The position numbers and the translations under genes were made by a program. A DNA stretch of 50,418 nt from sequence record SRR20825006_1155. One strand, given 5' to 3'. The notes under the pieces are model-generated. The model searched no databases. It had not been told where the DNA came from and worked only from the letters and a program-made list of their open reading frames with translations. Position 1 is the stretch's first letter; each line of letters starts with the position of its first letter. This document shows, piece after piece, positions 10,801 to 33,570 of this stretch.

Positions 10801-11004
10801 GGGTACGATGGCGTCGTAGTGTTTGATCGCTGTTTTTGGCAGCCCTTTTTCCAACGCTTCTTTCGCGGCGTCAAATTGCTGTTTCCGCCATGAGGCATCT
10901 TGTTTGGGTTCAGCGGCCATGGAGAGTCTCAGGGGTAAATAGAGCAACCCGAGCAACAGACTCAGAACAACAACGACGTAAGTCACGGTACGAAATTGCC
11001 GCAT
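4873..11004 (-). CDS. Bacterial alpha-2-macroglobulin family protein (2043 aa)
   Basis: MG2 signature FFTDRAIYRPGQ and EEYKRPKFEV. A2M domain RKNLNETAFFFP...MPEALTRW. Thioester motif YPHECSEQ and C-terminal ESMYAP. Confidence 0.95.
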   Translation of the reverse strand: MRQFRTVTYVVVVLSLLLGLLYLPLRLSMAAEPKQDASWRKQQFDAAKEALEKGLPKTAIKHYDAIVPAAIAEEDHDDAILAMGMRASLRGQLDGGGAEDRILHLQEDLAAAPEAAKPLLQAVLASWFYSYQQQNQWRFQNRTEIETREDDTAPIKSADDLKTWSAQRIIRHAGGLFDQALENAETLQTTELTSIQRLITGGNAPESYRPTVYDFLVNQAIDHFVDAHSIYSGPIERFELEANSPILDPVADFLGWEIPETDLESPLRRATELMQDWVQFRQSKADEQQDAFLDANWNRLRFAEQNAVGTTKDERSQTAMQRFLSENANHPISTRASFQLAQKEMGQEEFVRAHQIAKTAVSAHPDSFGGRQCAALIEQIEAPQLNIATERVWNPVLAESAQAEIEISYKNITQVHFRLVPMSFDQLLSSGQMVQNNEHDWLRKFGEEPAVQQWSVDLKETADFKTSVHRIDVPKDLAKGSYMLIASVNKDFVWKENYLAGKQVWVSELALVTDGRWNQGTLEGHVLDSNTGEPIPQATVAVWTWVNDGQRRNNFNNGYRYRSLPSLTTDQNGRFELKAEKGANLNNLLLLAQNGKDRLPAQQHHSIRPTRTSNQLSGRTVFFTDRAIYRPGQTLRFKAIATTYDQSKNLYETHNRKSLQVQLFDPNNQVVETLDLTTNDRGSCHGSFHLPTSGLTGQMRLVVREFPRGTATVRVEEYKRPKFEVTLDAPKDPVRLEESVTVSGRATAYTGAAINDATVRYTVVRQVQYPIWWGWRCWWIPTPPAEPQTIVQGETTTDELGRFDVSFDAVPDASVDRDSEPTFRYVITADVVDTTGETRSDKRTVTAGYTTMSARMSVARPDWLTEQEPVDIQVHTTSLDGEAQAAEVKIEVWSLKAPEVVPQPRWGAYQPLPADADGEAKRVRPEDPNSWPLDELQSSKTLQTDANGHGSWEVSLPKGHYRAVLSAVDSAGNSVSALLPLRVFDPKADQLGLPIASLFVTPQSQWEPGETFTAVWGSGYEDAKALVEVEHRGEILQQYWTSGDKTQIEITQAIDESMRGGFVVRVMMVHENRLHLHQQIVNVPWTNKDWSIRWGRFVSKLKPGAEETWTAVIEPKVVDESTKAKQDSIMEMVATLYDASLDVFAKHRFATGFNVFYRDRSTRSPYLNNGWQGLTTVVMWSHRSYPGGELSYPDWVSELQLNQFYGRPMPMARGMAFAESDMMMADGAMAASAPMRKQAAPLMVGGSEITSDSEEADDAPPESNGPEIDLSGIPPRKNLNETAFFFPELIADENGAVKMKFTMPEALTRWQLLGFAHGANLASGTISGTAVTSKDLMVQPNPPRTLREGDEIELTVKVSNQSAATQTGVVALNLSSAASGESVDAQVGNSQPKQSFEIPAGQSKTFSWRIQVPDGIGYLVYKAVGSTGRLSDGEEGYLPVLTRRVLVHESISLPIDGAETKTFKLPKLLEGNSDTLSSESLTIQMTSNPAWYAVMALPYLMEYPHECSEQTFHRLYANLLARHIATSDPRIQRVFEQWRNQPEAAGRVTLDSPLAQNEELKSIALTETPWVLQSKSESEARRNVGILFDTNRVNDQADRLTRRLIELQKEDGSFAWFDGGPSNDTITMLIVTGFGRLQHLGVEVDMQVAMKALKHLDAYATKLYERIKPENRSKAHVSPTVAMLLYGRSFYKDQPTAPEHKEAVEYWTNQLAEHWLSLSSRMSQGHAAIALHRLGRLNEAKGIVASLIERSVVDEQGMHWNDANSGWWWHQAPIETQAMMIEVLDEVAGDLQRVELCQAWLLRQKETQSWETTKSTADAVYALLLRGTDKLASDEVVDIAVGQQEVPKGNVEAGTGFYQHRFSADEITPEMGSIQVKKTTSGIAWGGVHWQYFENIENITPHDGTPLQIEKQLFVVRATDSGPVLRPIGDEPVRVGDELVSRLIIRSDRDMEFLHLRDHRGSGTEPINVLSQYRRQDALGYYQSTRDAAEHFFIGYLRKGTYVLESRCRVQLRGNYQTGMASIESMYAPQYNSHSESHALEVK

Positions 11005-17929: not shown

Positions 17930-18093
17930 CGTGGCTGAAAAGCTTCCCTTTGCAAGCTGCATGAATTCTCAAACGGGGCGTGGAATCGTTTACAATCCAC
18001 GCCCCCATCTGACGCTTTTTGTAGATGCCTGATTGGTGCCCGTGCTTTACCGAGGCATTTCCTGCGGCGTCCCTTCCAGCCAGGAGAGTTTTC

Positions 18094-19452
18094 ATGAGCC
18101 GCCTTCAACGATTGCGCGCCGTCGCACTCATCCCCGCCCTCCTTTCCACCGGCTTCGCCTCGTTCGCGAGTGTTGATGAAGCGGTCGCGAAAGAGGATCG
18201 AGAAACGATCGTTCGCAATGATCGTGAACGTGTCCTGGCGACCGGTTACTGGATCTACAACGATCTGAATGCCGCTTACGAACAAGCCCGCCAAACCGGC
18301 AAGCCGATCCTGGTCGTCTTGCGCTGCTTGCCCTGCGAAGAATGCGTCAAGTTGGACGATGACTTGGTCGAAAGCGACCCGGAACTGAAGCGTCTGCTCG
18401 ATCAGTACATTCGCGTTCGTGTTGTCGGCACCAACGGACTGGACCTGAACGTTTTCCAATATGACACGGACCAGTCCTTCGCGGTTTTCATGCTCAATGC
18501 TGACAAAACAGTCTACGGCCGCTTTGGGACGCGGTCGCACCGCACCGAATGGCTGGGTGATGTTTCTTTGGAAGGAATGGCAGCGGCGCTTCGAGAGAGC
18601 TTGAAACTGCACAAAGCCTATCCTGCCAATCGTGAATCACTGGCGGGCAAAACCGGTGCCCCATTGGAATTCGCTTCGCCGGAAAAGTACCCCACACTGA
18701 CAGACCGCCCCGACCATCTCGACTATTCAGGTCAAGTCACGAAGAGCTGCATCCATTGCCATCAAATTGGCGAAGCCCGGCGTGACTACTACTGGCAAAA
18801 AGACCAATCGATCCCCGAAGAGGTTTTGCACCCTTACCCGCACCCGAAATCGATTGGGTTGGTGCTCGACGCAAGATTCCCTGCTCGAGTGAAAAGCGTT
18901 GCCAAGGATTCCGCCGCCGCAAAAGCCGGTTTTCAGGTGGGCGATGATTTACTGAGCATCCAATCACAACCGCTGGTATCGATGGCAGACGTGCAGTGGG
19001 CATTGAATCAAATTCCTGCCAAAGGCGCCGAGGTGGACGTTCAAACCAAACGCGGCGACCAAACGCAGTCCATCACGTTGTCGTTGCCCGAAGGCTGGCG
19101 GCGATGGGACGATCCGTCGTGGCGAGTATCATCCTGGATGATGCGGCGGATCGCCGGTGGGGGAATGCGTTTACTCCCTCTGGACGAAAGTGAGCGTCAG
19201 AAACTAGATTTGCGATCGCCGATGGCACTTCGAGTCGCCAACGTCGGCAAGTACGGGCTCCACGCGACCGCTCACAAAGCCGGCGTGCGGGTGGACGACA
19301 TCTTGATCGAGTTCGACGGCCAATCGGATTTGATTCGCGAAGCGGATGTCTTTGATCACGTCAACGAGAAGTTTCGCCCGGGCGATCGAGTCCAGATGAA
19401 GTTCCTTCGCAATGGCCGCGAACGAACAGTCGAAATTCCAATCCAGAAGTGA
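18094..19452 (+). CDS. Exported thioredoxin-like / PDZ-domain protein with a CxxCH motif
   Basis: Signal-like N-terminus. Thioredoxin_7-like WIYNDL...A...GKPILVVLRCLPCEEC. CIHCH at 18748-18762. Two PDZ-like segments (SAAAKAGFQVGDDL, AHKAGVRVDDIL). Confidence 0.85.
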   Translation: MSRLQRLRAVALIPALLSTGFASFASVDEAVAKEDRETIVRNDRERVLATGYWIYNDLNAAYEQARQTGKPILVVLRCLPCEECVKLDDDLVESDPELKRLLDQYIRVRVVGTNGLDLNVFQYDTDQSFAVFMLNADKTVYGRFGTRSHRTEWLGDVSLEGMAAALRESLKLHKAYPANRESLAGKTGAPLEFASPEKYPTLTDRPDHLDYSGQVTKSCIHCHQIGEARRDYYWQKDQSIPEEVLHPYPHPKSIGLVLDARFPARVKSVAKDSAAAKAGFQVGDDLLSIQSQPLVSMADVQWALNQIPAKGAEVDVQTKRGDQTQSITLSLPEGWRRWDDPSWRVSSWMMRRIAGGGMRLLPLDESERQKLDLRSPMALRVANVGKYGLHATAHKAGVRVDDILIEFDGQSDLIREADVFDHVNEKFRPGDRVQMKFLRNGRERTVEIPIQK

Positions 19453-19486: not shown

Positions 19487-19513
19487 GCGGCACGGACGCC
19501 GCTTTTTTATTTT
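19487..19513 (+). terminator. Probable intrinsic terminator
   Basis: GCGGC-acggac-GCCGC hairpin followed by TTTTTTATTTT, 35 bp after the stop codon. Confidence 0.6.
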
Positions 19514-20085: not shown

Positions 20086-21999
20086 ATGAACCACTCAGCT
20101 TCGCGTCGGAAGGTGGACGACCTATTCAGTGCAACGGCACATCGTGCACGCAAGTTGAGTCGTCGCCTCAGTCTCAAAAGACTCGCACGAAACGTCTGGC
20201 CTTCAAAACGTAGAAAAGGTGTCCGACGGTTCGCGGATCCTTCGCTTGGTCGCCAGGGATTGTTCCAAGCCCTGAACGACCGCAACGTCAATTATGTCGT
20301 CTTGCGTTGGTTCGAAAATGTACCCGAATGGCCCGAAGGGGAAGACATCGATCTGTTGATTGATGTCGCTGACCTGCACTTGGTGGATGATCTATTTGTC
20401 ACCAATAGCCGAGAAATCCCTTGCGACGTCTACGGCACTGGACCAGCCAAAAACGCATGTTGGAAAGGTTTGTCGTACTATCCTCCCTACCTTGCTGAAG
20501 AGATCATCCAATCTCGAACCTTCCACCGGGACCTCTGCTACATCCCGAACGAAGAACATTACTTCTTATCGCTGGCGTACCATGCGCTCTACCACAAGGG
20601 CAACGCATCGGGTTTGCCGTGGGACGACAATGAGGCAACTCAGCGACAGGGCAAACAAAACAGCGACCACGACTACGCTGACCGCTTGCGGGCAGCCGCC
20701 CCAGCAAAGTTCCAAAACACATCAATGACGATGGAAGGTTTGGAGCGCCTGTTGACGAGCGAATCTTGGAATCCACCGGTGGATACATTGCGACGATATG
20801 CGTCACTCCGTCCGGAACTGGCCCAATTCCTTCCACCTGCGATCGACAATCAACACGGCGAACTCATCGTTGTGCTGTTTCGACAATCCGCAGTCGACAA
20901 CCAGATTTTGGACGAGGCCATTTCACTATTCCGTCAAAAGCATCGCCTAGAAGTCATTGGCCAACATGAGCTTTCCGCTAAAGCTGCCCAGCTGGCTTCA
21001 AAACACATCCGAGGCGGGAACTGGGATGAAGGCCCGTTCCCTCAGTCCGGTGGATTACCTGCCGTTGCATTGGCGTTGTTTGATTTTCACCCAATCGAAC
21101 CCACGCCCGCTGAAAAGGAACAGTACCCCTACATACAAAACCGTCGTGTACTGTTCAAAAAGGAAATCCGACGACTGCTTAACAAGCGATTGCCCAAAAC
21201 GCAGTGGAGCAATTGCGTGCATTCTAGCGATGACGAACTCGAAGGTCTGGAATACCTTGAAATCATCGACTCGTCGTTTCACACAGAAGTACAAACTCAC
21301 GTCGACCACTTGCGTCGCAGCTACAAAACACCTGAACCAGTCATTCGATCGCTTCGCAAACCCGCCAACCGTTCGAAAACGGAACTCATCCAGTGGAACG
21401 GGCAAGAAGCCGTCCGAAAAACATTTCGTCCTAGTTTCAAACGATTCTGTGATCGCGAAATATTCATCTACCAAACCTTGGGACCTCGATTATCCACGGT
21501 CCCGGAAGTACTGGAATTCAGCGACTACAGCTTCGTGCTTCCAAAGTATGAAAATTGCTTGGCCAACTTGTCTCTTCGCAAACAAGGCAAACTGCTGAAA
21601 CCTTACGCGAGCCAAGTTCTCGAATTGCTTCGAGCAACATTCGCGTTGAAACGCGTCATCATCGATTTCCATCCAGGCAATTTGATCCTCACACCAGGAG
21701 GCGACCTCCATTTCGTCGACTTTGAATTCACTCAGCCTCTTTCGGATTGGCCAAACTCATTCATGCAGTCGCCGGACCTCGTCGGTTTGCCATCCGGTTT
21801 CTCCGGGGACCGTCCCAGCAATTTGCCGCAGAACGGTTACACCTATGACGATTTCTGGAAGCCCATCTTCCAGTGCAGCTTAGAGACGCTCATCAAGCAA
21901 TGCGGAATTGACACTTCACCCGCTGTCATGGAGAAATTGTCGATCACTGATTTCAAGTCAGGCGAGCAATCCACTTCATCGCTCCGCGAAGCCGGCTAG
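20086..21999 (+). CDS. Hypothetical multidomain enzyme: nucleotidyltransferase-like + NDP-kinase-like + APH/choline-kinase-like
   Basis: 637-aa ORF with YVVLRW...GEDIDLLID, then IVVLFRQSAV...NCVHSSDD, then DFHPGNLIL...FVDFEF. Domain calls are by eye. Confidence 0.7.
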   Translation: MNHSASRRKVDDLFSATAHRARKLSRRLSLKRLARNVWPSKRRKGVRRFADPSLGRQGLFQALNDRNVNYVVLRWFENVPEWPEGEDIDLLIDVADLHLVDDLFVTNSREIPCDVYGTGPAKNACWKGLSYYPPYLAEEIIQSRTFHRDLCYIPNEEHYFLSLAYHALYHKGNASGLPWDDNEATQRQGKQNSDHDYADRLRAAAPAKFQNTSMTMEGLERLLTSESWNPPVDTLRRYASLRPELAQFLPPAIDNQHGELIVVLFRQSAVDNQILDEAISLFRQKHRLEVIGQHELSAKAAQLASKHIRGGNWDEGPFPQSGGLPAVALALFDFHPIEPTPAEKEQYPYIQNRRVLFKKEIRRLLNKRLPKTQWSNCVHSSDDELEGLEYLEIIDSSFHTEVQTHVDHLRRSYKTPEPVIRSLRKPANRSKTELIQWNGQEAVRKTFRPSFKRFCDREIFIYQTLGPRLSTVPEVLEFSDYSFVLPKYENCLANLSLRKQGKLLKPYASQVLELLRATFALKRVIIDFHPGNLILTPGGDLHFVDFEFTQPLSDWPNSFMQSPDLVGLPSGFSGDRPSNLPQNGYTYDDFWKPIFQCSLETLIKQCGIDTSPAVMEKLSITDFKSGEQSTSSLREAG

Positions 22000-22291
22000 A
22001 GTCATTCTGACTCCAACGCCCACCTGAGAAAGAGATGTTCCGATCGAGGTTGAGCCGGCGGAACACTCTTGGCCCGTGTTCCGTCATATCAACGACGCCA
22101 CAACATTCGAAAACAGGCCATCTCGACCAAGGCACGCGAGACGGTCCATTTCACATCGTCTCGCGAGCGTTTTTAAAACTGATGTCAAGTTGGTTAAGAA
22201 TAGATAAAACGGCAAAGCCTACATTGCTACTCAGATGGGACAGTCCTACGATTCGCGTAGCAACAAATCCCTCTGACTGAATCGGTCCCAA

Positions 22292-23266
22292 ATGATTAGC
22301 AAGTGCAATGTTGGCACGACGCTCCAGCCAACGTTGGCCACGCTGGAAACAAGCTTTTCTCCAGAGTGTCCTCCACTCCAAAAATCCAATCTGACCACCC
22401 CTGCCAATCCCTCAGCCCCCTCCCCTGCACTTTCCTATTCCGAAAAAGAATCGGCAGGACGACGGTTAGTGCGACTACCTAAGGCGATCCTCCAGAAGCT
22501 GACTGGTGGAAGAATCGCTCAGGCGTGCTTGAATCGGAATGCAATCATTTCTCAAAGAATGATGGGCATCGGAGCAGGTGCTGGAGTACTAAACAGTGGG
22601 GAGGCCGCGGTATTCCCATTGCTACCCCGACAATCGCGTGAACCTTTGGTCGTATTCGACGTGGGTTCGAATCGCGGACAGTTTTTGAACCTGGCACGTA
22701 AATCTTTGGCAGGCAGAGACTTCCACATCCATTGCTTTGAACCTGGCCAGAAAACTTTTGAATCACTTTCAAGTCAGGCGACTGATTCGAGGGTCACTCT
22801 CAACAACGTCGCGGTGGGAAATTGCGAAGAATCTCGCACACTGTATTACGACCGATGCGGGTCGGGCATGGCGTCACTGACCAAGCGGGAACTCAAACAT
22901 CGAGGCATCCAGTTTGACCAATTCGAAGAAGTCTCTGTAACCACGATTGACCGCTACTGCGAAACGCACGGCATCGAAGGCATTGACTTGCTCAAATTGG
23001 ACATTGAGGGGCATGAGTTAGATGCACTCAAGGGAGCCGAAAAAACATTCAGCCAGAACGCGATCCGGTTGGTCACGTTTGAAATGGGCGGTTGCAACAT
23101 CGACACGCGAACTTTCTTCCGCGATTTCTGGAACTTCTTCACGGATCAGAAAATGACGTTGCATCGAATCACTCCATCCGGGAGCCTGATTGAAATTCGT
23201 CGTTACAAGGAAACCCACGAACAGTTTCGCACCACGAACTTCGTTGCCATTCGCCAAGATCGTTGA
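22292..23266 (+). CDS. FkbM-family SAM-dependent methyltransferase
   Basis: VFDVGSNRG, HCFEP, IDLLKLDIEGHE and VTFE motifs. True start probably downstream of 22292. Confidence 0.92.
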   Translation: MISKCNVGTTLQPTLATLETSFSPECPPLQKSNLTTPANPSAPSPALSYSEKESAGRRLVRLPKAILQKLTGGRIAQACLNRNAIISQRMMGIGAGAGVLNSGEAAVFPLLPRQSREPLVVFDVGSNRGQFLNLARKSLAGRDFHIHCFEPGQKTFESLSSQATDSRVTLNNVAVGNCEESRTLYYDRCGSGMASLTKRELKHRGIQFDQFEEVSVTTIDRYCETHGIEGIDLLKLDIEGHELDALKGAEKTFSQNAIRLVTFEMGGCNIDTRTFFRDFWNFFTDQKMTLHRITPSGSLIEIRRYKETHEQFRTTNFVAIRQDR

Positions 23267-23393: not shown

Positions 23394-24227
23394 ATGGCAA
23401 TACCGACGAAACCTCGAATCAGCGTGATCATCACGACATTCAATGCCCCGGACGAGCTCTGGCTTGTACTGGTTGGCTACCAGATGCAGACAGAACGTGA
23501 TTTCGAGATTCTGATCGCTGACGATGGATCCGATTCGAGAACGGCCGCCGTAGTCGAACGGTTCCGAAACTCTTGCGACATCGAAACCCATCATGTCTGG
23601 CATGAGAACGATGGCTTTCGCAAATGTGAAATCCTCAATCGCGCCATTGAGCAGGCCAATAGTGACTACCTGCTCTTCACCGACGGTGATTGCATCCCCA
23701 GACCAGATTTTCTTGCAGTCCATCTGCGTGAAGCTGAACCAAAACGATTTCTTTCAGGCACCTACAACAATTTGCCGGAATCGTTCAAAGGGTTGATTAC
23801 CGAAGCCAATGTTCGGTCCGGTCTCGCATTCCGCCTCAAATGGCTTCGCACGAATGGCCTCCCGTTCAGTTCGAAGTGTCTCCGCCTGGTACGCAACAAG
23901 ACCTTCACTTCGGTTATGAACCGCCTCACCACAACCCGGCCAACCTGGAATGGGTGCAACGTATCAGGCTGGAAGTCAGATATCGAAGCTGTCAACGGAT
24001 ACGATGAACGAATGCGTTACGGAGGCCTGGATCGCGAAATCGGCTTGCGGATGAACAACCGAGGAATTCGCGGGAAGCAGATTCGATTCAAAGCCATTTG
24101 CTTGCACGTCGACCACCCGCGGGGTTACATGAATGACGAAGATCTTCAAAGAAACCTGTCTATTCGCAATGACACGATCCGCAGCAAGCTGACGCGAACA
24201 CCCTATGGCATTCGGCGAGCCGCGTAA
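23394..24227 (+). CDS. Glycosyltransferase family 2 (with a Glyco_transf_7C-like C-terminus)
   Basis: ISVIITTFN, IADDGSD, FTDGDC and NGYDERMRYGGLDRE motifs. Confidence 0.93.
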   Translation: MAIPTKPRISVIITTFNAPDELWLVLVGYQMQTERDFEILIADDGSDSRTAAVVERFRNSCDIETHHVWHENDGFRKCEILNRAIEQANSDYLLFTDGDCIPRPDFLAVHLREAEPKRFLSGTYNNLPESFKGLITEANVRSGLAFRLKWLRTNGLPFSSKCLRLVRNKTFTSVMNRLTTTRPTWNGCNVSGWKSDIEAVNGYDERMRYGGLDREIGLRMNNRGIRGKQIRFKAICLHVDHPRGYMNDEDLQRNLSIRNDTIRSKLTRTPYGIRRAA

Positions 24228-25177
24228 TGGCGACTTCAGTTCACCCCCATCTTTCCAATGAGAAGCAGCCCCTCGACTCCAAGGCAAGCGATCGAGATTG
24301 CACGACGACAGAAGCAAGTGCATCGGACAAAACTTGTACGATATCGATCAGTGGCGGGCTCGGCAATCAAATGCTGCAGTACGCGGCGGGCCGAGCACTT
24401 TCGATTCACCATGACTGCCCGCTTCAACTCGACTTGAAATTCTATTCCAGCAAGCGGCATCGATCCTATGAGCTCGATGCGTTCCCGATTCAAGCACATC
24501 GATCGATCAAGCCTAGTTTCTTCAGCCAGATCCTAAGCAAGATCCAAAGCGAATCGAAACACGTCCCAACCTATCAAGAACAATCGAAACGGTTTGATCC
24601 GGCTTTCTTCAACACGGAACCGCCGGTCAAGATTCGCGGCTATTTCTTCTCGGAGAAATACTTCTCGCCATACGCCGATCAGATTCGGACTGAATTGACG
24701 CCTCCCATTCCACCGGACCAACCCGCTCGCGACATGGCGATTCGGCTGAAGGAATGCGTGTCGACTTCTCTGCATGTCCGCCGAGGCGACTACGTAACCA
24801 ATGCAAACGCACGGCAGCGATTTTGGAGCTGCACCAGCGAATACTTCGAAGCCGCGATAGAGCGACTCCCCACAGACTCGACTGTATTTGTCTTCTCCGA
24901 TGACATCGAATGGGCCAAGCAAAACATTCGTTCATCTCGGACGACCATATATGTCAACGATGAACTGAAGCAGGCCGGCTCTCCGGAAACGGGTTTGAGA
25001 GACTTGTGGCTGATGACCCACGCAAAGTCTCACATCATCGCAAATTCTTCATTCAGTTGGTGGGGTGCGTGGCTCGCAAACTCTGAAGCGAACTTGACGA
25101 TAGCCCCTAAAAAGTGGTTTAACGACCCTGAGATTGATGACTCCGACATTGTCCCATCAAGTTGGCATCGAATTTAA
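24227..25177 (+). CDS. Glycosyltransferase family 11 (alpha-1,2-fucosyltransferase-like)
   Basis: GGLGNQM, LHVRRGDY, FSDDIEW and NSSFSWWGAWL motifs. The start overlaps the GT2 stop (TAATG). Confidence 0.95.
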   Translation: MATSVHPHLSNEKQPLDSKASDRDCTTTEASASDKTCTISISGGLGNQMLQYAAGRALSIHHDCPLQLDLKFYSSKRHRSYELDAFPIQAHRSIKPSFFSQILSKIQSESKHVPTYQEQSKRFDPAFFNTEPPVKIRGYFFSEKYFSPYADQIRTELTPPIPPDQPARDMAIRLKECVSTSLHVRRGDYVTNANARQRFWSCTSEYFEAAIERLPTDSTVFVFSDDIEWAKQNIRSSRTTIYVNDELKQAGSPETGLRDLWLMTHAKSHIIANSSFSWWGAWLANSEANLTIAPKKWFNDPEIDDSDIVPSSWHRI

Positions 25178-25242: not shown

Positions 25243-25938
25243 ATGTTCAACTACCTGTTAAAATATGCCCGCCGCAAAACGGACCCGATTTCGCTGCTTC
25301 AACAGCTAACAAAGGGTAGCAGCGAATATCGCACTCTCGTTCACGTTGGTGCTCACCTGGGCCAAGAACGAACAAACTATGAATCCAAAGGCTATCAGAA
25401 GATACTTTGGATCGAAGGTTCTGAAGAAATACACGCAAAGCTGGCTGACTCACTTCGCCAACACGACGGCCCTGCTGAACACAGCACCGCATGTGCCTTG
25501 CTGAGCGATCGCGATGGAGAGGAAATTGGCCTTCGATGTTTTAGCAATAACGGCATGTCGAATTCCATCTTTGCCCCTGCGGAACAGCTAACGAGTCGGT
25601 GGCCTACGGTAAAAGAAACCGGCGAAATCGAGATGCAACGCTCCGTCAGCCTCGATCGCCTTTTGGCGAATACTCCATTCGCCAACGACTGCGACGTTTT
25701 AGTTGTGGATGTCCAAGGTGCCGAACTACTCGTCCTCAAAGGCGGACTAACGACACTGAGTCGCGTCAAAGCGGTTGTCTGTGAAGTATCCACCGTGCCC
25801 TATTACGAGGGTGGCGTGCTGTTCAAAGAGTTGAACCAGTTCATGGAATCCCATGGATTCCATGCAATGTCCACGCCTCGTCGTCATGGCGACATGCTCT
25901 TCATGCCAAAAGCGGCTCAAAGCAAACTAGCTGCTTAG
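25243..25938 (+). CDS. FkbM-family methyltransferase
   Basis: VHVGAHLGQE, WIEG, VVDVQGAELLVLKG and CEVS...YEG motifs. Confidence 0.9.
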   Translation: MFNYLLKYARRKTDPISLLQQLTKGSSEYRTLVHVGAHLGQERTNYESKGYQKILWIEGSEEIHAKLADSLRQHDGPAEHSTACALLSDRDGEEIGLRCFSNNGMSNSIFAPAEQLTSRWPTVKETGEIEMQRSVSLDRLLANTPFANDCDVLVVDVQGAELLVLKGGLTTLSRVKAVVCEVSTVPYYEGGVLFKELNQFMESHGFHAMSTPRRHGDMLFMPKAAQSKLAA

Positions 25939-25992: not shown

Positions 25993-26796
25993 ATGGCGAA
26001 TCAAATCAAACAGCTAAAACAGACCTGGCGGCTTTGCAGCTCGGTGGCAAACGCTTTCAAAGGCAAGATTCGCACGACACTCGGCATTCGCAAGCCAACC
26101 AAGACATGCCAGATCCCCGAACTCAAACGCATTGTCGACGAAACGTTTCCCGAAGACGAACGCGGTGTGTTTGTAGAAGTTGGTGCATATGACGGCGAAC
26201 GATTCTCCAACACATCATGGCTTGCTGATGCCGGATGGCGGGGTTTGTATGTCGAACCGTCAAAACAATTTTCACGGTGGTGCCGCCTCCGTCATATGCT
26301 CAACCGAGTGACGGTCCTCAATGTTGCCGCAGGAAACGAGAACACCAGCGCGACGCTTCAGCAAATCGGATCGCTCAGCACCATGAGCCAAGCGACGTTC
26401 GAAGAGTACGATCGAATCGATTGGGCTAAGCAACAAATCGCCAAAGAGTGCAAGCAACAGCAAACAGAAGTTCTCAAACTCGACAAGATCCTTGCAGACC
26501 AAAAGATCCCAGAGGCATTTGATGTTCTCGTCGTTGATGTTGAAGGTTACGAAGAGAACGTCTTTTCTGGCTTCTCCCTCGCCCAATGGAAACCGAAGCT
26601 GATCATCGTCGAACTGTGCGACATCCACCCAGATTTCCAAGACAACTTGGAACTCGTCGAGTCAGCGGGCCGTGTTCGCCAAACGATTCTGGCGGCAGGG
26701 TATCGAGAAAAATACAGCGACAGTATCAACACGGTCTTTGAAGTTGACGCTGCGTCGTCGTGCAGCGAATCAAAAGACAGCCGAATCGCAGCCTAG
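25993..26796 (+). CDS. FkbM-family methyltransferase
   Basis: FVEVGAYDG..SNT, GWRGLYVEP, VVDVEGYE and PKLIIVE motifs. Confidence 0.92.
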   Translation: MANQIKQLKQTWRLCSSVANAFKGKIRTTLGIRKPTKTCQIPELKRIVDETFPEDERGVFVEVGAYDGERFSNTSWLADAGWRGLYVEPSKQFSRWCRLRHMLNRVTVLNVAAGNENTSATLQQIGSLSTMSQATFEEYDRIDWAKQQIAKECKQQQTEVLKLDKILADQKIPEAFDVLVVDVEGYEENVFSGFSLAQWKPKLIIVELCDIHPDFQDNLELVESAGRVRQTILAAGYREKYSDSINTVFEVDAASSCSESKDSRIAA

Positions 26797-26906: not shown

Positions 26907-27887
26907 TCAGCTGGTGACGAGATCCCAGTTGGCTGAGGCTTTAACTGCTTCGGTGATCGAGACGTCTGCGAAGCTACTTAGAATCGCTGCGTCACGAGCG
27001 TTCTGAAGACGATCCTTTGTCGAGACGATTGCTTTGAAGCGTCGCCAAACCGACGGGGATACTGAACGTTGCAACTCTGCAACACGTAAAGTCGATGCTC
27101 GATCCGACTCAACCGTCTTCAATCGCTTTGCGTAGCGGCTGTTCGGATTTTGGTCAAGCTCGTAGTTCCCAAAGCCATGGTCTGGCTTTAGGTACTTCAA
27201 ATGCCAGTAAAGGAAGCCGACGAACTTGCGAGGCAGGTTTCCACGATGAAAACGTTCGAAGCGACGATCGTGTGTGAAATAGGTTTCCTCGCTAACCGGA
27301 AAGAAACCAATATCGCCCCCACCCGAAATTGAATCATCCAAGGGCACCGACAAATCGCCGTTCTCATTCAACAGAAGATTGGGTCCGGAGAAACAATGCA
27401 TTTCATTGAACGCCGAACCGAGCATTCGTATCGAGTCCGTCGCTTCTTTTGTTGCTTGTCCAATCGCAAGATGATCGTCATCTAGCTTCGTAGCAACCTG
27501 ATAACGGGTAGCCGCGAGCGAAAAATTGTAATAGTTCACCAAGCTGTTCGGCGAATCACCCGGAGTTTCAATGTGCCCAGTGCTGCCCGGTGGATATACC
27601 CGGTCGGTGTAGTGAATCACCCGCAATTTTTCTTCACCAAACTCCGCCTGCAAGCTTTCTAGTATCTCCACCGAACGATCAGTGCATTGATTGTGCACTG
27701 CAACGATCTCATCAAAGTAGGAGATATGGCTGCGGATCGTTGCTTCCAAAAATGCCTCGCCATTGCGAATTCGCATGAATGCGGAGATCCCCGGCAAACG
27801 GCCAGTGACATTCAAGTGATCTCGTTCGAAACGATAGCCTGAAACGGTCGACCCCAGACTACTTATCGGTGTTTTAGTATCACGCAA
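26907..27887 (-). CDS. GT-A fold glycosyltransferase resembling the Campylobacter CgtA (beta-1,4-GalNAc transferase) family
   Basis: SAFMRIRNGEAFLEATI, HNQCTDRSVEI, LVNYYNF and KLDDDH parallel the CgtA motifs as I recall them (FIRVKNE, YNDCTDGSEEI, LY.YYN, KIDVDH). Confidence 0.75.
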   Translation of the reverse strand: MRDTKTPISSLGSTVSGYRFERDHLNVTGRLPGISAFMRIRNGEAFLEATIRSHISYFDEIVAVHNQCTDRSVEILESLQAEFGEEKLRVIHYTDRVYPPGSTGHIETPGDSPNSLVNYYNFSLAATRYQVATKLDDDHLAIGQATKEATDSIRMLGSAFNEMHCFSGPNLLLNENGDLSVPLDDSISGGGDIGFFPVSEETYFTHDRRFERFHRGNLPRKFVGFLYWHLKYLKPDHGFGNYELDQNPNSRYAKRLKTVESDRASTLRVAELQRSVSPSVWRRFKAIVSTKDRLQNARDAAILSSFADVSITEAVKASANWDLVTS

Positions 27888-28080: not shown

Positions 28081-29091
28081 TTAAGCCGCCTTGGCGAACG
28101 CGGGCGTTTGAAGTTGATCGATCCATTGGCACACGTGTTCGACACCGATCCGGTTGATGGCTTCCCGTCGTGGTGATCCACCGCGAGAATTGGCTTCGAT
28201 TGCCATCGCATGTTGCTGGTACGGACCGCGTGCGGAAGGCGATTCGGCTCCATTGTGTGGGCCATACAAACCAACAACGTTAGCGCCAGCAGCGACCGAA
28301 GCATGCAACATCGGCGTGTCCTCCGCGATCACCACTCGGACCAATGGACTGAGTGCTGCGGACAATGATAGCGTCATGTCGGGTGCCAGCGAAGCGGCGT
28401 CCCCGGCGCAGGCTACGATCTGCTCTGCCTTCAGGCGTTCCTCGAATGTTCGCCAAGTCACGATAGAGTGCATTTGAAACCGGTCCGCCAAATAGCGAGC
28501 CGTCGCTGCATAGCGATCAAACATCCATCCGACCGAAGACGAGACTCTTCCGGAGTCCATCATGGCCAGATCTTGCCCGGCCCAGCGGTGGCGGTATCGC
28601 ATCGCCCAACGGTGATCGGCGGATTCCACTGGCCAGTCAAAGCTGGCTTGCGGACGATCGATCGCGAGCGGTGCCAGCAGTTCCAACCGACGATCGACCA
28701 CGTGGTGAAACACCGGTGTCACTAATTCATTGAGTAGACGGCGTCTTGGTGCAAATCGCGGCATCGTGTCCCAGCCAATCCGGCGTGCAGCGGCCGACAA
28801 CTGACACACAAGTGCGGACACAAACGACTCGTCGCAATCGATGGCCACGTCAAAATCTTTGGCATTCAACTTTTGTTTGACGCTGCGAATGCCTCGTGGT
28901 GACCGATTCCAGCGGGTCGGCAGTTCAACGACTTCATCGATAGCAGAATGCTGCTCCAAGAAGTCCGCTTTTTCGACGCCGACCGCAATCGTGACATGCG
29001 AATTCGGGAAATACTCTTTCAGCGAACAAGCGACCGGCAGCGTCAAAATGCAGTCGGACAGATCACCCGTTTGGCTGAGCAGAATCCGCAT
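28081..29091 (-). CDS. Glycosyltransferase family 9 (heptosyltransferase-like), divergent
   Basis: MRILL...DCILTLP, FDVAID, HVVDR.L.LL.PL and DT.MLH...A.G..VVGLYGP motifs. Start uncertain (29091-29151). Confidence 0.85.
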   Translation of the reverse strand: MRILLSQTGDLSDCILTLPVACSLKEYFPNSHVTIAVGVEKADFLEQHSAIDEVVELPTRWNRSPRGIRSVKQKLNAKDFDVAIDCDESFVSALVCQLSAAARRIGWDTMPRFAPRRRLLNELVTPVFHHVVDRRLELLAPLAIDRPQASFDWPVESADHRWAMRYRHRWAGQDLAMMDSGRVSSSVGWMFDRYAATARYLADRFQMHSIVTWRTFEERLKAEQIVACAGDAASLAPDMTLSLSAALSPLVRVVIAEDTPMLHASVAAGANVVGLYGPHNGAESPSARGPYQQHAMAIEANSRGGSPRREAINRIGVEHVCQWIDQLQTPAFAKAA

Positions 29092-29172
29092 GGGAGAAGA
29101 TGACTCAAGAGACATAATCAAAATCAGTTGGAAAGCAGAATTCGTGATCAACGCGTTCGACGCGAAACGCCA

Positions 29173-31494
29173 CTATCGACTGGAAATGGAACGGAACGCA
29201 CGAATGCGAGCCCGCGGGGCCAACCCCCGAGTGTCCACCGGTTGATCGAGCACGTAACTGCCGACATTGCCGGCTTGGTCCGTGGCATCGATCCGCAAAT
29301 AGATCTGACGTGGCAATTGAGGGTCCGCGGGCCAAACGTAGTCGCCCAGGTTTCGCAGACCTGCGGCGATGGTTGTCCAAGGACCTTCAGGTGTATCACT
29401 AAAGGAAAGCGTGATTGGACGCGACATCAAATATTGATCTTGGCACCGATACGCGATCACCAACGACCCGGCGCGGTCGGCCTCTCCGTAGCGAGCACCG
29501 GTGATGCTGACCTCGGGTCCGGTCTGGTCGACCACCACCACGATATCGGGTGCATCACCGCTCAGCGGTCGCGGGCTGGTCAAACCGTTCGCTGCAACGA
29601 CCACGATCTGAAATCCAAAAATCCCTTCGCCGTTGGTTTCGATATCAAAAGGACTGGCTTTGTCGGGGTCAGTTCCCCAACGATTCCAAGTGATGCCGCC
29701 GTCTGTGGTTCCGTAAAGCTCGATTGCTTCCACGCCACGACCACCAATCGCCTCGATTTCAAAATCCAAGCTGAATCGATTGCTGTCGCTGTGACGGATT
29801 ACGGAGCGTTCCGCCAATCGCTTCAAGTCCAGTGTTTCACGCGGATCCAGTGTTGTGCGTTCCATCGTTGCGGAACTGGCCCTTTGCGACTCGTATCGCA
29901 TCTCGGTTGGAGTTTCCGCTGAGCGCCCACTTGGTTGATTTCCCGCTGAACCACCGAGCGACAGCGAGTCGCGACTTTTGCGATCTCCGGTGATAGGCGA
30001 CCAAGGCGACTGCACAGGTTCTTTGGAATTCTGAATCTTGTCGACCGGCGAAGTCGGCTCGGGAGCATTCAGTTGCGACGGCGCGTTGGTGTTCAAACCT
30101 GCCGGTGCAGGAATGGACTCAGGCAGGGACGGCCCTACATGAAACGGCGTCTCGGGTTCCGCCGACGATGAACCACCTGGTGTTCCCAGCGTTCGCGACT
30201 GTGCCTGTGGCGTTTGCAAGCCTGGCGGCTGAGCTTGAGAACTGGGGACCTGAGGACTGGTCACCTGAGGACGGGGCAACTGAGAGCTGGGTAATTGTGG
30301 CGTCCCGGTGGCCGGCGAAGGCCCCTGCGTCTGCGGTGCGGGTGCATCGAGCGGTCGCATCGCTTCGGCGGGAGTCTGCGGACGCGACGGTGCGGGCAAC
30401 GATTCCGCTTCCGGCGTTGCAATATTTTCAATGCTTCGCCCCGCTCCCATTGCCGACTGGTGTGGCTGCTGCCCGGCTGCATTTTCAACGACAGGTCCAA
30501 CGGGCTCGGACATCATCCCGGATGGCAATGGCAACATTTCGGGACCTTGCGACGCTGCCTCGCTGCTTCCAGCGGGCGTCTGGCCCGGCAAATCACCAAA
30601 CCCCTGAAAAATTCCTTGCCCAAACGAGGGACCGTATCCATTGGGTCCCGATGCAAATCGCGTGGTGGGCTTGGATGCGACCCGCGGTTTTTGAACCAGC
30701 TCACTGACGATGGTTTCGTTGCCAGCCTGATCGAGAGCACGCAGACGCAACGACAATTGTTTCCAATCGTCCTTCGGATGCAGTTGCAACCTTCCGGTAT
30801 TTCCTTCTCGTTCGACCGTGGCGACTTCCCATCGACGAGTCGTATCGGTGACGTAGTGAACGGTCAGCTGGCGAGTTTCTGTTGCATCACGAATTGTGAA
30901 CTTCGCAACAACGCGGCCATCGGCGTCGGAATCCGCTTCCAGGTCGATTTGGGGTCCTTGCGTATCAACCACGACTTTCAACTCAGGAACGATTGGTCCC
31001 GGTGGAAACGGCCGACCATTGGCGTCCACCGTACGGGTGGCGAACCAGAACGTCCCTTCGCCGGATTCACGAATGTGAAACTGCCGAGCGTCCGGCGGCT
31101 GCCGATCCAACAACTTCCACTGTCCGGGGGCAATTGCCACCGATGTCCGGGCACCGGCTTGGGTGTATGGGTTCTGCTGAGGCAATGGCCCCGATTGCGT
31201 CGCCGGGACGTTCTCGCGAGATGTTTCCGTCTGATCGGCTGGATTGGGTTGGTTTGCGGGAACCGCCACGTACAATTGCACCTCGACGGGCGCTGTTCCT
31301 GCTGTCGCAATGTTGAACGGAATCTGGAACGAGTCCGAATTCATGATCACATCGGCAACTTCTTGTGCCGAGGTGGCACGCGAATCCGCGACCGTGCCAC
31401 CGGCCAATCCTGCCGTCACCATTGCCGCAACCAATGCCCGCCGAAACGCGGTGGAGCGACGAATCAAACGACTTTGGTGCTGGTCAAATCGCAT
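29173..31494 (-). CDS. Large secreted hypothetical protein with two homologous beta-rich domains and a Pro/Gln/Ser-rich linker
   Basis: Signal-like RRALVAAMVTAGLAG. Internal repeat SDSFQIPF...GEGTFWF...VVVDTQGP versus SNRFSLDF...GEGIFGF...VVVDQTGP. Start placed at MRFDQ so that it does not overlap mnmG. Confidence 0.8.
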   Translation of the reverse strand: MRFDQHQSRLIRRSTAFRRALVAAMVTAGLAGGTVADSRATSAQEVADVIMNSDSFQIPFNIATAGTAPVEVQLYVAVPANQPNPADQTETSRENVPATQSGPLPQQNPYTQAGARTSVAIAPGQWKLLDRQPPDARQFHIRESGEGTFWFATRTVDANGRPFPPGPIVPELKVVVDTQGPQIDLEADSDADGRVVAKFTIRDATETRQLTVHYVTDTTRRWEVATVEREGNTGRLQLHPKDDWKQLSLRLRALDQAGNETIVSELVQKPRVASKPTTRFASGPNGYGPSFGQGIFQGFGDLPGQTPAGSSEAASQGPEMLPLPSGMMSEPVGPVVENAAGQQPHQSAMGAGRSIENIATPEAESLPAPSRPQTPAEAMRPLDAPAPQTQGPSPATGTPQLPSSQLPRPQVTSPQVPSSQAQPPGLQTPQAQSRTLGTPGGSSSAEPETPFHVGPSLPESIPAPAGLNTNAPSQLNAPEPTSPVDKIQNSKEPVQSPWSPITGDRKSRDSLSLGGSAGNQPSGRSAETPTEMRYESQRASSATMERTTLDPRETLDLKRLAERSVIRHSDSNRFSLDFEIEAIGGRGVEAIELYGTTDGGITWNRWGTDPDKASPFDIETNGEGIFGFQIVVVAANGLTSPRPLSGDAPDIVVVVDQTGPEVSITGARYGEADRAGSLVIAYRCQDQYLMSRPITLSFSDTPEGPWTTIAAGLRNLGDYVWPADPQLPRQIYLRIDATDQAGNVGSYVLDQPVDTRGLAPRARIRAFRSISSR
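30241..30300. repeat. Four degenerate 15-bp tandem repeats inside the Pro-rich linker
   Basis: actggggacctgagg / actggtcacctgagg / acggggcaactgaga / gctgggtaattgtgg, encoding PQLPS-SQLPR-PQVTS-PQVPS on the minus strand. Confidence 0.7.
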
Positions 31495-31608
31495 GGTTTG
31501 GTCAAAATTTGGGTTGGCGTGAATTCGTTTGGCGTCAACTCGAGCGTCACCGCGCATTGACAATCCGTGTTTCGAACATCGGCGTTTCCCGACTGTGGAC
31601 TTCAACCA

Positions 31609-33570
31609 TTGACCGCTAACAATCCTCAAAATCGCTACGACTACGATGTCGTCGTTATCGGAGCCGGTCACGCGGGAACAGAAGCCGCCGCCGCTGCAGC
31701 GCGTCTGGGTGCGAAAACCGCACTGCTAACAACCAACCTGGATACGGTCGGACAAATGTCCTGCAACCCAGCGATTGGCGGCGTGGCGAAAGGTCAAATC
31801 GTTCGCGAAGTCGACGCATTGGGCGGCCTGATGGGCGAAGCGATCGACGCAACAGGGATCCAGTTTCGGATGCTCAACCGCCGCAAAGGACCGGCGATGC
31901 ACAGCCCGCGTGCTCAGGCGGACAAAAAGGCCTATCAAAACTTCATCAAATATCGGATTGAAACCCAAGACAATTTGGACCTCCGGCAAGAAACCGTCGA
32001 GGACCTGATCACCGAACCGATCGCCGGTGGACAAGACCGATTGGCAAACCAACGGGTGATTGGTGTTCGAGTTCGCGGAGATGCGGTTTACCACGCGCCG
32101 ACCGTGATTCTGACGACCGGGACGTTCTTGCAAGCGATCATGCACACGGGCAAATCGCAATCCGCGGGAGGACGAGCGGGAGAAGGAACCACGGCCGGAC
32201 TCAGCGGCGCGCTGAAACGCATGGGTTTCACGCTGGATCGATTCAAGACCGGAACGCCGCCACGACTCAACGCTCGAACAATCGATTACTCGGGATTGGA
32301 AGAGCAACCCGGTGACGATGACCCGCAACCATTCAGCTATCTCAACGACGCGATCAGCTCACCACAGATGGCTTGTCACATCGCTCACACTAACCAACGT
32401 GTGCATGACTTGATCCGAGCGAACTTGGACCGGGCTCCGATGTACAGCGGCCAAATCGATTCTCGCGGCCCGCGATACTGTCCATCGATCGAAGACAAAG
32501 TGGTCCGCTTCGCTGACAAATCCAGCCACCAGCTGTTCTTGGAACCGGAAGGCCGACAAACTTGTGAAGTCTACGTCAACGGGATCTCAACCAGCCTGCC
32601 CCGAGACGTTCAAGACGCGATGTTCCGCTGCATTCCAGGTTTGGAAAAGGCCGCGATCATGCGCTACGGCTATGCGGTTGAGTACGACTACTGCCCGCCG
32701 ACTCAGTTGTGGCCACACCTCGAATCCAAATCCGTCTCGGGGCTGTTCTTTGCCGGCCAAATCAACGGCACCACCGGATACGAAGAAGCGGCTGGACAAG
32801 GTTTGATCGCTGGCCTGAACGCAGCGAGAACGGCTGCGTCCCAAACACCGTGGGTACCCTCTCGGCAAGACGCTTACATAGGCGTGCTCGTCGACGACTT
32901 GGTGACCAGCGGCACTGACGAACCCTACCGAATGTTCACCAGCCGAGCCGAGTATCGGTTGCTGCTGCGACAGGACAACGCCGATCGTCGGTTGACCTCT
33001 CAAGCCGATGAACTGGGCCTGATCGACGCCGCTCGACGCGAACGTTTCCACCAGAAGCTAGCCGAGATCGAACGCGGGACCGAGCTACTGAAGCAAGCCA
33101 AATTCCAACCGGAAACGGGTCCCACCGTTCGCGGCGACGTCTACCTGCGACGGCCGGAGGTGACTTGGGACGTAATCGCTGAACAAGTCCCTGAGCTAGC
33201 AAGCATTGGACGTGAAGCAGCCGAACAGTGTTCGATCGACATTAAATACGCGGGCTACATCGACCGGCAACAAGCCGAAGTTCACAAGCAATCGCGACAC
33301 GCTGAAAAGTCGATCCCGGTTTCGTTTGACTACGACAAGATCGGGCCGCTTCGCAATGAAGCAAAAGAAAAGCTGACAAAGGTTCGCCCGCTGAACTTGG
33401 GCCAAGCCAAACGAATCAGCGGAATCACTCCTGCGGACTTGGCGTTGGTTCTCGCCCACATCGAAAACAACTCGCTCTCTCAAACCAAATCGTCCGAGCC
33501 GGATGACAATCGTGCGTCGTCCGACAACGAACCCTCTCGACCAACCTCCTCTGCTTCGGATTCCCTTTGA
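31609..33570 (+). CDS. mnmG: tRNA uridine-5-carboxymethylaminomethyl modification enzyme MnmG (GidA)
   Basis: [54 protein letters not shown] and [12 protein letters not shown] motifs. Start TTG 31609 or GTG 31567. Confidence 0.97.

Follow-up and report, generated by a model that had tools for sequence, protein, structure and literature searches.

The question raised by the locus described here is what a large, unnamed protein does at the head of a run of glycan-modification genes. In the window, by which we mean the whole analysed stretch of 50,418 nucleotides from sequence record SRR20825006_1155, an open reading frame (ORF) at 20086..21999 (+) encodes 637 amino acids (protein P0001) and opens at the first available start codon past a stop. 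An earlier note on this DNA, made from the letters alone, had read it as a three-enzyme fusion of a nucleotidyltransferase, a nucleoside-diphosphate-kinase-like domain and a small-molecule kinase. Our analysis indicates that this planctomycete gene specifies a single chain in which a nucleotidyltransferase (NTase), a divergent nucleoside-diphosphate kinase-like (NDK-like) domain and a small kinase are joined, and which probably performs an undescribed step in the synthesis of cell-surface sugars. That one polypeptide carries three catalytically equipped domains, namely the NTase at residues 52-241, the NDK-like domain at 257-404 and the kinase at 416 to about 610, we conclude with high confidence from sequence and predicted structure. 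All three look equipped for catalysis as judged by their residues, and the substrate pocket of the NDK-like domain looks remodelled.

The features of the protein are as follows. Conservation counts refer to 100 aligned homologues for the NTase and NDK-like domains, and to 43 for the kinase.

20086..21999 (+), whole ORF of 637 amino acids: NTase, NDK-like domain and kinase
20086..20238 (+), N-terminal stretch, residues 1-51, basic and little conserved, standing in place of the extension of about 125 amino acids seen in relatives
20239..20808 (+), Pol-beta-superfamily NTase domain, NTP_transf_5-like, residues 52-241 (AF2, VIA, hhalign)
20344..20352 (+), DxD metal-binding motif D87-I-D89, both Asp in 100 of 100, aligning with the DvD of NTP_transf_5
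20425..20427 (+), D114, candidate third catalytic carboxylate, D in 98 and E in 2 of 100 in the sequence alignment
20581..20598 (+), H166...H170-K171 motif in the helical half of the NTase domain (H166 100, H170 99 and K171 100 of 100)
20854..21297 (+), divergent NDK-fold domain, residues 257-404 (Foldseek, VIA, hhalign)
21007..21024 (+), family-specific IRGGNW motif I308-W313 (R309 98, G310 and G311 97, W313 99 of 100)
21211..21231 (+), NxxHSSD motif N376-D382 with putative phospho-acceptor H379, aligning column for column with the NxxH[GA]SD of NDK
21331..21945 (+), minimal protein-kinase-like kinase domain, residues 416 to about 620 (AF2, Foldseek, VIA, family profile)
21418..21420 (+), K445, ATP-anchoring lysine, 43 of 43
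21664..21681 (+), catalytic loop D527-x4-N532, each of the two residues in 41 of 43
21718..21726 (+), DFE (DFG-like) metal-binding motif D545-E547 (D545 42, E547 43 of 43)

The three motif blocks quoted in the earlier note were located as described: Y70-D93 (YVVLRW...GEDIDLLID) at 20293-20364, N376-D382 (NCVHSSD) at 21211-21231, and the C-terminal AVRK / DFHPGN / DFE pattern at K445, D527-N532 and D545-E547. Its proposed domain limits (55-250, 255-410 and 420-620) agree with the ranges that we obtained from fold search. The three domain calls behind them were borne out by structure prediction, fold search, profile comparison and residue conservation. The predicted models show an NDK fold and an NTase fold in the two-domain model and a kinase fold in the C-terminal model, and both aspartates of the DxD motif and the histidine of the NDK-like motif are kept among homologues (D87 and D89 in 100, H379 in 98 of 100). 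The possibility that the motifs arose by chance was rejected on this conservation, on the profile statistics and on negative controls, in which four cross-wise hhalign pairings gave probabilities of 0.1-1.8%.

Direct family searches with the protein were nearly silent, so that structure and profile comparison were needed. NCBIfam gave weak matches to the kinase part of lanthionine synthetases and nothing else, a single-sequence search of the PDB gave nothing useful, and the relatives found in the ESM Atlas fell into unnamed clusters only.

The NTase and NDK-like domains were modelled together. The AF2 model of residues 41-415, calculated from a 100-sequence alignment, had a pLDDT of 94.8 and a pTM of 0.92. 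The fold search for the NTase was run with this two-domain model, and the match lists were dominated by NDKs. The VIA matches of the NTase part were MenT1 (8an4_A; Z 7.3, root-mean-square deviation (rmsd) 3.8, 131 aligned), ANT(2'') (4xje_A, Z 6.2), TM1012 (Z 5.8) and LnuA (Z 5.1). In hhalign, the NTase columns of the family were compared with 25 PF14907 (NTP_transf_5) proteins and matched at 96.1% probability (E 3.4e-9, 153 columns); fold search and profile comparison together place a minimal NTase fold with a helical subdomain in the protein. Sub-threshold NTP_transf_5 matches in Pfam were also obtained for 3 of 38 standalone relatives (best 4.4e-4) and for 1 of 43 long ones (0.0097).

The likeness to NTP_transf_5 extends to the motifs, since the DxD motif and the H166...H170 motif align with the DvD and with the H...H helix of that family, respectively. 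The family differs from it in the fused NDK-like domain and in the segment ahead of the DxD. An hG[GS] motif at that place is a hallmark of Pol-beta NTases; it is absent here, and L73-R74-W75, invariant in 100 of 100, occupies the position of the LKG of PF14907.

For the NDK-like domain the fold evidence is more extensive. Foldseek ranked NDKs first (E 1.5e-4, prob 1.00), and VIA returned the Pyrobaculum NDK 1xqi_A at Z 10.2 (rmsd 3.4, 123 aligned), followed by the NDKs of mimivirus (9.5) and S. aureus (9.4). When VIA was consulted a second time, all of the 50 listed rows were NDKs at Z 10.1-10.7, with 2dxd_A at Z 10.7 (rmsd 3.5, 127 of 154 residues aligned). In-between scores belonged to NDK-like domains of larger proteins (RP2, 3bh6_B, Z 7.4; axonemal chains, Z 6.9-9.2), and ferredoxin-like rows other than NDKs (ACT domains and ribosomal protein S6, for example) stayed at Z <=6.1. 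The NDK-like columns of the family matched 28 canonical NDKs, taken from planctomycete genomes via PF00334, at 95.7% hhalign probability (E 9e-9, 128 columns). Pfam gave sub-threshold NDK matches for 14 of 38 standalone members and for 2 of the 43 long ones.

In canonical NDKs the nucleotide is bound by the Lys of KPD, the Tyr of HY, the Phe of KPF, two Arg, a Thr, an Asn and a Glu, the last of which pairs with the catalytic His. The hhalign alignment equates R266 with the Lys of 'KPD', W313 with the base-stacking Phe of 'KPF' and R362 with the Arg of 'TIRGD', and N376, H379, S381 and D382 with the N, H, S and D of NxxHxSD; the Thr aligns to Q351, beside which stands the invariant N352. As far as the alignment goes, the retention of equivalents for the Lys, the Phe, one Arg and the NxxHxSD residues argues that the ligand would be a nucleotide. 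The domain thus shares with NDK (PF00334) a fold that covers nearly the whole NDK chain, the NxxH(S/G)SD motif and counterparts of the KPD lysine (as Arg), of the base-stacking aromatic residue and of the TIRGD arginine. The two differ in that the family domain is always joined to an NTase, whereas NDK is a free-standing oligomeric housekeeping enzyme.

These comparisons bear on one alternative, namely that the NDK-like domain is non-catalytic and serves, in the manner of RP2, as a nucleotide-binding or scaffold domain which regulates the NTase, the latter modifying a glycan together with the kinase. VIA listed the RP2 domain (3bh6_B) at Z 7.4, several canonical NDK residues lack an equivalent, and the 637-aa protein itself gives no Pfam NDK match. 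However, a scaffold would not be expected to conserve the phospho-transfer motif as the family does: N376 is kept in 97, H379 in 98, S381 in 83 and D382 in 98 of the 100 homologues, as are R266 (98), R309 (98), N352 (98), K358 (98) and R362 (96). The sole sequence that lacks the histidine, P0108, has also lost IRGGNW, as expected of a decayed enzyme. We therefore regard a non-catalytic domain as quite improbable.

The C-terminal domain was modelled separately (residues 416-637, pLDDT 92.0). Foldseek matched the model to protein kinases (E about 2e-7), and VIA returned 232 chains at Z >=8, headed by Rio1 (1zp9_A, Z 12.9, rmsd 3.1, 166 aligned) and Rio2 (Z 12.7), with many kinases, Bud32 and the RNA kinase Ark1 lower down at Z about 11. 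Rows between Z 10.7 and 12.9 are effectively tied, so that the fold search cannot tell a protein from a small-molecule substrate. The family profile, searched against the PDB, found solved Ser/Thr kinases at 1.2e-7 via the kinase part alone. Pfam matches among the 43 long members are all weak and spread over Pkinase (9), APH (3), ABC1 (2) and Kdo (1), and one relative, P0086, passes the APH cut-off with 29.2 bits, with a weak Kdo match in addition. The family kinase has the protein-kinase-like fold and the full catalytic set (K445, E458, D527, N532, D545) of the Kdo/WaaP, RIO/Bud32 and APH kinases, and the helix-C glutamate E458 is kept in 42 of 43. It differs from them in being very short, about 190 amino acids, and the kinase domain of the 637-aa protein reaches the curated cut-off of none of the named subfamilies APH (PF01636), Kdo-WaaP (PF06293) and RIO.

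In order to see how the three domains are distributed, we examined the relatives of the protein. A word-indexed search returned 110 of them, all unnamed or hypothetical and with hardly any precomputed Pfam domain; the closest are a metagenome protein (99% identical) and a protein of Rhodopirellula sp. JC737 (84% identical). By BLAST coverage there are two types: long relatives of 570-816 amino acids that cover about 45-603 of the query, and short ones of about 360-560 amino acids that cover about 45-410. The family profile of 711 positions divides into an N-terminal extension (about 3-125), the NTase and NDK-like domains (about 125-505, hereafter module A) and the kinase (about 510-706), and its match to the 637-aa protein begins at profile position 123, residue 30. 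Four architectures occur, namely module A alone, the extension with module A, module A with the kinase (as in the 637-aa protein), and all three. The NTase and NDK-like domains make up one unit because the standalone proteins (about 360-450 amino acids) cover only positions 45-410 of the query and because the two-domain model has the pTM given above. They are one old module whose parts stay together, and the kinase is an optional partner. The three domains of the proposed three-enzyme fusion are thus all present; in evolutionary terms they are two units, module A, which also occurs alone, and the optional kinase.

The extension, about 125-160 amino acids in P0010-P0035, is conserved in most members and absent from the 637-aa protein. 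It shows an 'IE...YLG...NNADVL(V/I)L.G' pattern and a hydrophobic stretch, and it has no Pfam match save a weak one to Methyltransf_23 (0.0085) in locus L104.

An exhaustive search with a profile of 38 module-A sequences gave 710 representative proteins under a cut-off of E<=1e-30. Loosening the cut-off to E<=1e-10 and to E<=0.001 raised the number to 1067 and 1894, and the weakest hits may take in plain NDKs or NTases. Planctomycete frames of about 400 amino acids with a split Pfam NDK match were considered as members and rejected, as they have no module-A similarity by blastp or by the family profile. Such a second planctomycete protein type, unrelated to module A, was seen in L031-L035 (for example G033:C1:2078585-2079166); it has about 390-440 amino acids and an NDK match in two halves (positions 1-51 and 67-128), separated by an insert of about 65-80 amino acids. 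The 79 loci that we collected from species-representative genomes come from Planctomycetota, Cyanobacteria, Actinomycetota, Bacillota, Gemmatimonadota, Alphaproteobacteria, Spirochaetota, Kiritimatiellia, Rhodothermales, Balneolales and others. Its occurrence in Planctomycetota is patchy, with a match at E<=1e-20 in only 2 of 121 evenly sampled genomes, a distribution that fits an accessory gene of variable surface-glycan loci. The family is a sizeable unnamed one whose core, an NTase joined to an NDK fold, is dedicated to glycan assembly.

This last statement rests on the neighbourhoods, for which genes were called with a purpose-made simple ORF caller and clustered by BLAST. The gene calls are crude, and contig ends truncate some loci. 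The family gene went uncalled in 7 of the 79, which were dropped, and 73 loci were counted, window included. The two largest neighbour clusters are both family 2 glycosyltransferases (GT2). A GT2 gene directly adjoins the family gene in 34 of the 73 loci (on the same strand in 25), and lies within two genes in 43 and within three in 46; among genes more than five positions away the figure is 3 of 173. The other recurrent neighbours are glycosyltransferases of families GT4 and GT61, ABC exporters, a Wzx-type flippase, sugar epimerase/dehydratases, DUF6807, GFO/IDH/MocA oxidoreductases and very large PKD/LamG proteins, and in actinobacterial loci methyltransferase+TCAD9 proteins lie near the family gene.

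Module A is also fused to such partners. P0220 joins TPR, GT41 and FkbM domains to it, P0224 TPR, GT41 and the kinase, P0192 a GT4 domain and P0239 a Polysacc_synt_3 (Wzx-type) flippase. The kinase lies in cis in 44 of the 73 loci and in a neighbouring gene in 9 (in 8 of which it is fused to GT2); none was seen in the DNA examined of the remaining 20. That the kinase, module A, a methyltransferase and glycosyltransferases are joined in several combinations is strong evidence for one shared pathway. The glycan role of the family is well supported, and its domains as a set are associated with Leloir-type glycosyltransferases of surface-glycan loci.

The same evidence speaks to another explanation, in which the target is a protein or RNA. 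In one version, a MenT-like toxin NTase together with a Ser/Thr kinase would act in conflict or signalling, and the glycan genes would be coincidental. The best solved match of the NTase is indeed the toxin MenT1 (Z 7.3), and the kinase resembles Ser/Thr kinases in sequence and fold, with Pfam Pkinase matches in 9 of 43. Against coincidence, the adjacency to GT2 is systematic (34 of 73 loci, compared to 3 of 173 distant genes) and module A is covalently joined to GT41, GT4, FkbM and Wzx domains. The annotated recurrent neighbour clusters hold no antitoxin-like or defence gene, PADLOC not having been searched, and the tied kinase fold matches (Z 10.7-12.9) do not single out protein kinases. Such a role is, in our judgement, extremely unlikely.

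Several observations on the neighbourhoods stand on their own. In the actinobacterial loci (L050:9830-11812 (-), L072:7608-9425 (-) and others), genes for proteins of 553-660 amino acids with class-I methyltransferase and TCAD9 matches adjoin the family gene, GT2 genes and ABC exporters, an arrangement that we take to be reminiscent of the WbdD methyltransferase-kinase chain terminators. In six Pirellulales loci (L042, L058, L063, L065, L066 and L080) a conserved block stands ahead of the GT2 and family genes and comprises an MFS sugar transporter, an NDH-2-like oxidoreductase, GFO/IDH/MocA oxidoreductases, DUF6807 and a glucuronyl-esterase-like protein.

The glycan-locus setting that the earlier note had seen in the window is real, and is found family-wide. 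The features around the gene are listed below.

19487..19512 (+), terminator-like GC hairpin and T-run, 35 nucleotides past the upstream Trx7/PDZ gene
22292..23266 (+), FkbM-family methyltransferase (Pfam 3.6e-21; TIGR01444)
23394..24227 (+), GT2 glycosyltransferase, of the subfamily found with the family gene elsewhere (Pfam 9e-18; cluster c1, present in 35 loci)
24227..25177 (+), GT11 (fucosyltransferase-family) glycosyltransferase (Pfam 4.6e-29)
25243..25938 (+), FkbM-family methyltransferase (Pfam and NCBIfam scans)
25993..26796 (+), FkbM-family methyltransferase (Pfam and NCBIfam scans)
26907..27887 (-), weak GT2-like protein (Pfam 5.5e-4, below cut-off; cluster c23; syntenic in L036 and L037)
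28081..29151 (-), GT9 heptosyltransferase-family protein (Pfam 1.3e-21; TIGR02193 8.2e-23, below the equivalog cut-off)

The hairpin upstream suggests that the ORF begins a new transcription unit; terminator-like sites in the region are no commoner than in shuffles (12 versus 12.8), and the hairpin is only suggestive. The gene ahead of it, at 18025-19452 (+), matches NCBIfam NF041199, 'Trx7/PDZ domain-containing (seleno)protein', with 417.7 bits. Downstream, the fusion gene and the first FkbM gene are 293 bp apart, and an ORF of 81 amino acids at 22035-22280 (+), which has no Pfam match, takes up most of this gap. Two further ORFs were recorded on the other strand, one of 2043 amino acids at 4873-11004 (-) and one of 832 amino acids at 29173-31671 (-). 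The latter has no Pfam or NCBIfam match, and its 5' end overlaps the predicted start of an mnmG-like gene at 31567.

The gene set of the window recurs in Rhodopirellula europaea (L036) and, rearranged, in a Pirellulaceae genome (L037) where the family protein is 49% identical. In seven other loci the family gene adjoins a GT2 with 45-51% identity to that of the window. One of these loci is in Nitratireductor, an alphaproteobacterium, whose GT2 (L090:9719-10540) is 47% identical to that at 23394-24227. Together with the scarcity of the family in Planctomycetota (2 of 121 sampled genomes), this similarity hints at movement of the gene pair between phyla. We also predicted a complex of the whole protein with the downstream GT2; run without alignments, it scored 0.00 and 0.00, which speaks neither for nor against binding.

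What, then, would three such domains do beside a glycosyltransferase? Our preferred reading, which we hold tentatively and at somewhat less than even likelihood, is that the adjacent glycosyltransferases are served by a local activation cycle of the protein, in which nucleoside triphosphate (NTP) is regenerated from the nucleoside diphosphate (NDP) that they release. We infer the following chemistry. The kinase would first phosphorylate a sugar or similar small substituent using adenosine triphosphate (ATP). The NTase would then couple the resulting phosphate ester to the nucleoside monophosphate of an NTP, which would yield an NDP-activated donor and pyrophosphate. A glycosyltransferase would consume the donor and free the NDP, and the NDK-like domain would, through phospho-H379, convert the NDP to NTP at the cost of ATP and pass it to the fused NTase. 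The nucleotide would thus be used catalytically, with each domain performing chemistry typical of its fold. Such a cycle would account for the constant pairing of NTase and NDK-like domains, for a kinase that is common yet separable, and for the presence of an NDP-releasing transferase next to the protein or fused to it.

A related proposal, which we consider doubtful, is that module A is an undescribed nucleotide-recycling engine for glycosylation, in which NDP is rephosphorylated and the NTP is handed directly to the Pol-beta-fold transferase. That transferase would then re-make the activated donor from the substrate phosphorylated by the kinase. If true, the module would contain the first Pol-beta-fold enzyme to make NDP-activated donors as well as the first NDK-fold domain devoted to glycan synthesis; the family numbers about 700-1000 sequence clusters in many phyla.

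The single-chain activation machine, which the earlier note had envisaged as forming or transferring an activated donor for the downstream transferases, fits the evidence, with putative substrates for each of the domains. A number of points weigh against it. To our knowledge the known sugar-1-phosphate nucleotidyltransferases have the Rossmann-like NTP_transferase fold and not that of Pol-beta, and the predicted NTase domain gives fold matches that are of middling strength on their own (Z <=7.3) and are backed by the hhalign result. In Pfam the 637-aa protein reaches no family cut-off; its single weak match is to APH (E 0.0048, 17.1 bits versus 23.2), and it has no NDK match (E<=1) and no NTP_transf_5 match. 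Three NDK positions have no equivalent in the hhalign alignment, since S305 stands for the Tyr of 'HY', P341 for the Arg of 'vR.mlGaT' and Y390 for the Glu. A Gly-rich IRGGNW...SGG segment takes the place of the NDK helix hairpin, and insertions precede the His motif. These missing residues and the replaced hairpin mean that the acceptor may not be an ordinary NDP.

Further points come from the genomes. G001, the nearest genome, which we used for genome-wide checks and which holds a single gene copy, 99% identical, has a housekeeping ndk elsewhere, and a canonical ndk is present in 40 of 41 sampled planctomycete genomes; general NTP regeneration is therefore not lacking. The NDK-like domain is also not the housekeeping NDK itself, as that genome has the separate canonical gene. 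A role in supplying GDP-fucose (guanosine diphosphate fucose) because the de novo route is missing is unsupported: G001 has gmd, so that GDP-fucose need not come from salvage.

The remaining counterpoints concern the kinase. Kdo/WaaP kinases are known to phosphorylate sugars already in a glycan rather than free sugars. Two of the GT2-fused kinases were scanned and both match Kdo/WaaP (PF06293) above the cut-off (50.3 and 42.7 bits versus 21.3); a GT2-fused partner also matches the Kdo-kinase model at 9.5e-12, below the cut-off of that model. This leads to the main alternative, in which a phosphate placed on the glycan is decorated. The kinase would phosphorylate a sugar of a nascent, probably lipid-linked glycan, as do WaaP and KdkA, and the NTase-like domain would decorate this phosphate with a nucleotide, a sugar or an alcohol. 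Extension of the phosphate to a diphosphate via phospho-His, or else the supply of NTP, would fall to the NDK-like domain. The outcome would be a substituent in phosphodiester or pyrophosphate linkage, and the FkbM enzymes may go on to methylate it.

Besides the match of the GT2-fused kinases to this lipopolysaccharide-kinase family, a decoration would agree with the GT9 heptosyltransferase-family gene in the window, with the actinobacterial loci that have methyltransferase+TCAD9 proteins and ABC exporters, and with the IRGGNW...SGG segment, which in place of the NDK helix hairpin leaves space for a non-nucleotide acceptor. Against it, counterparts remain at the NDK positions in contact with base and ribose (W313, R266, N376), which a nucleotide fits better than a glycan, and the constant joining of NTase and NDK-like domains is explained less simply than by the cycle.

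A precedent for the transferase step exists in PsmN of the pseudomycoidin cluster. PsmN is reported to come from a family of uncharacterised nucleotidyltransferases, to have an ANT(2'')-like predicted structure and to be required for the addition of a hexose to a kinase-installed phosphate, an activity that mutation of its DxD abolishes (PMC6993621). The NTase described here likewise matches ANT(2'') (4xje, Z 6.2). PsmN, a putative PF14907 member, differs in that it is not described as having a fused NDK-like domain. On the whole we consider decoration of a phosphate on the glycan rather unlikely, and we retain the local activation cycle as the preferred reading.

The protein can be set beside several known systems. 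In HldE and in the FKP of Bacteroides a kinase is joined to a nucleotidyltransferase, and in WbdD to a modifying enzyme, all in glycan pathways; the nucleotidyltransferases of HldE, FKP and LicC are Rossmann-like, unlike the Pol-beta domain of the 637-aa protein. LicD shares the Pol-beta/NTP_transf_5 fold class and LicC does not, while the LicA kinase and the LicD transferase together have fold classes as in the 637-aa protein. We know of no NDK-fold domain in HldE, FKP, WbdD or LicA/LicC/LicD, nor of any MenT, ANT(2'') or NTP_transf_5 protein described with a fused NDK-like domain.

The analogy to LicA/LicC/LicD that the earlier note had drawn is accordingly loose, because the NTase is Pol-beta/NTP_transf_5-like and so of the fold class of LicD, not of LicC. 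Neither the 637-aa protein nor the 43 long members have a LicC-type (NTP_transferase) Pfam match, and a LicD match is absent from these and from the 38 standalone members. A LicD sequence was found in 1 of the 121 sampled genomes, too few for profile comparison. The family has no Pfam model, and targeted full-text literature searches, the coverage of which does not extend to subscription journals, found no paper on it. For PF14907 the searches found one report, in which it appears solely as the uncharacterised neighbour of a phosphonate gene (PMC8942020).

Surface-glycan loci are rich in enzymes without a known role, and here three phosphoryl- and nucleotidyl-transfer chemistries appear to be combined in one chain. 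An NDK fold that is permanently joined to an NTase would mean either a new way to make or recycle activated donors beside a glycosyltransferase or a new phosphate-linked decoration. Either outcome would assign a function to the uncharacterised NTP_transf_5-like transferases, and could also provide a compact enzyme for one-pot glycan synthesis. The protein should be of interest to glycobiology and enzyme discovery.

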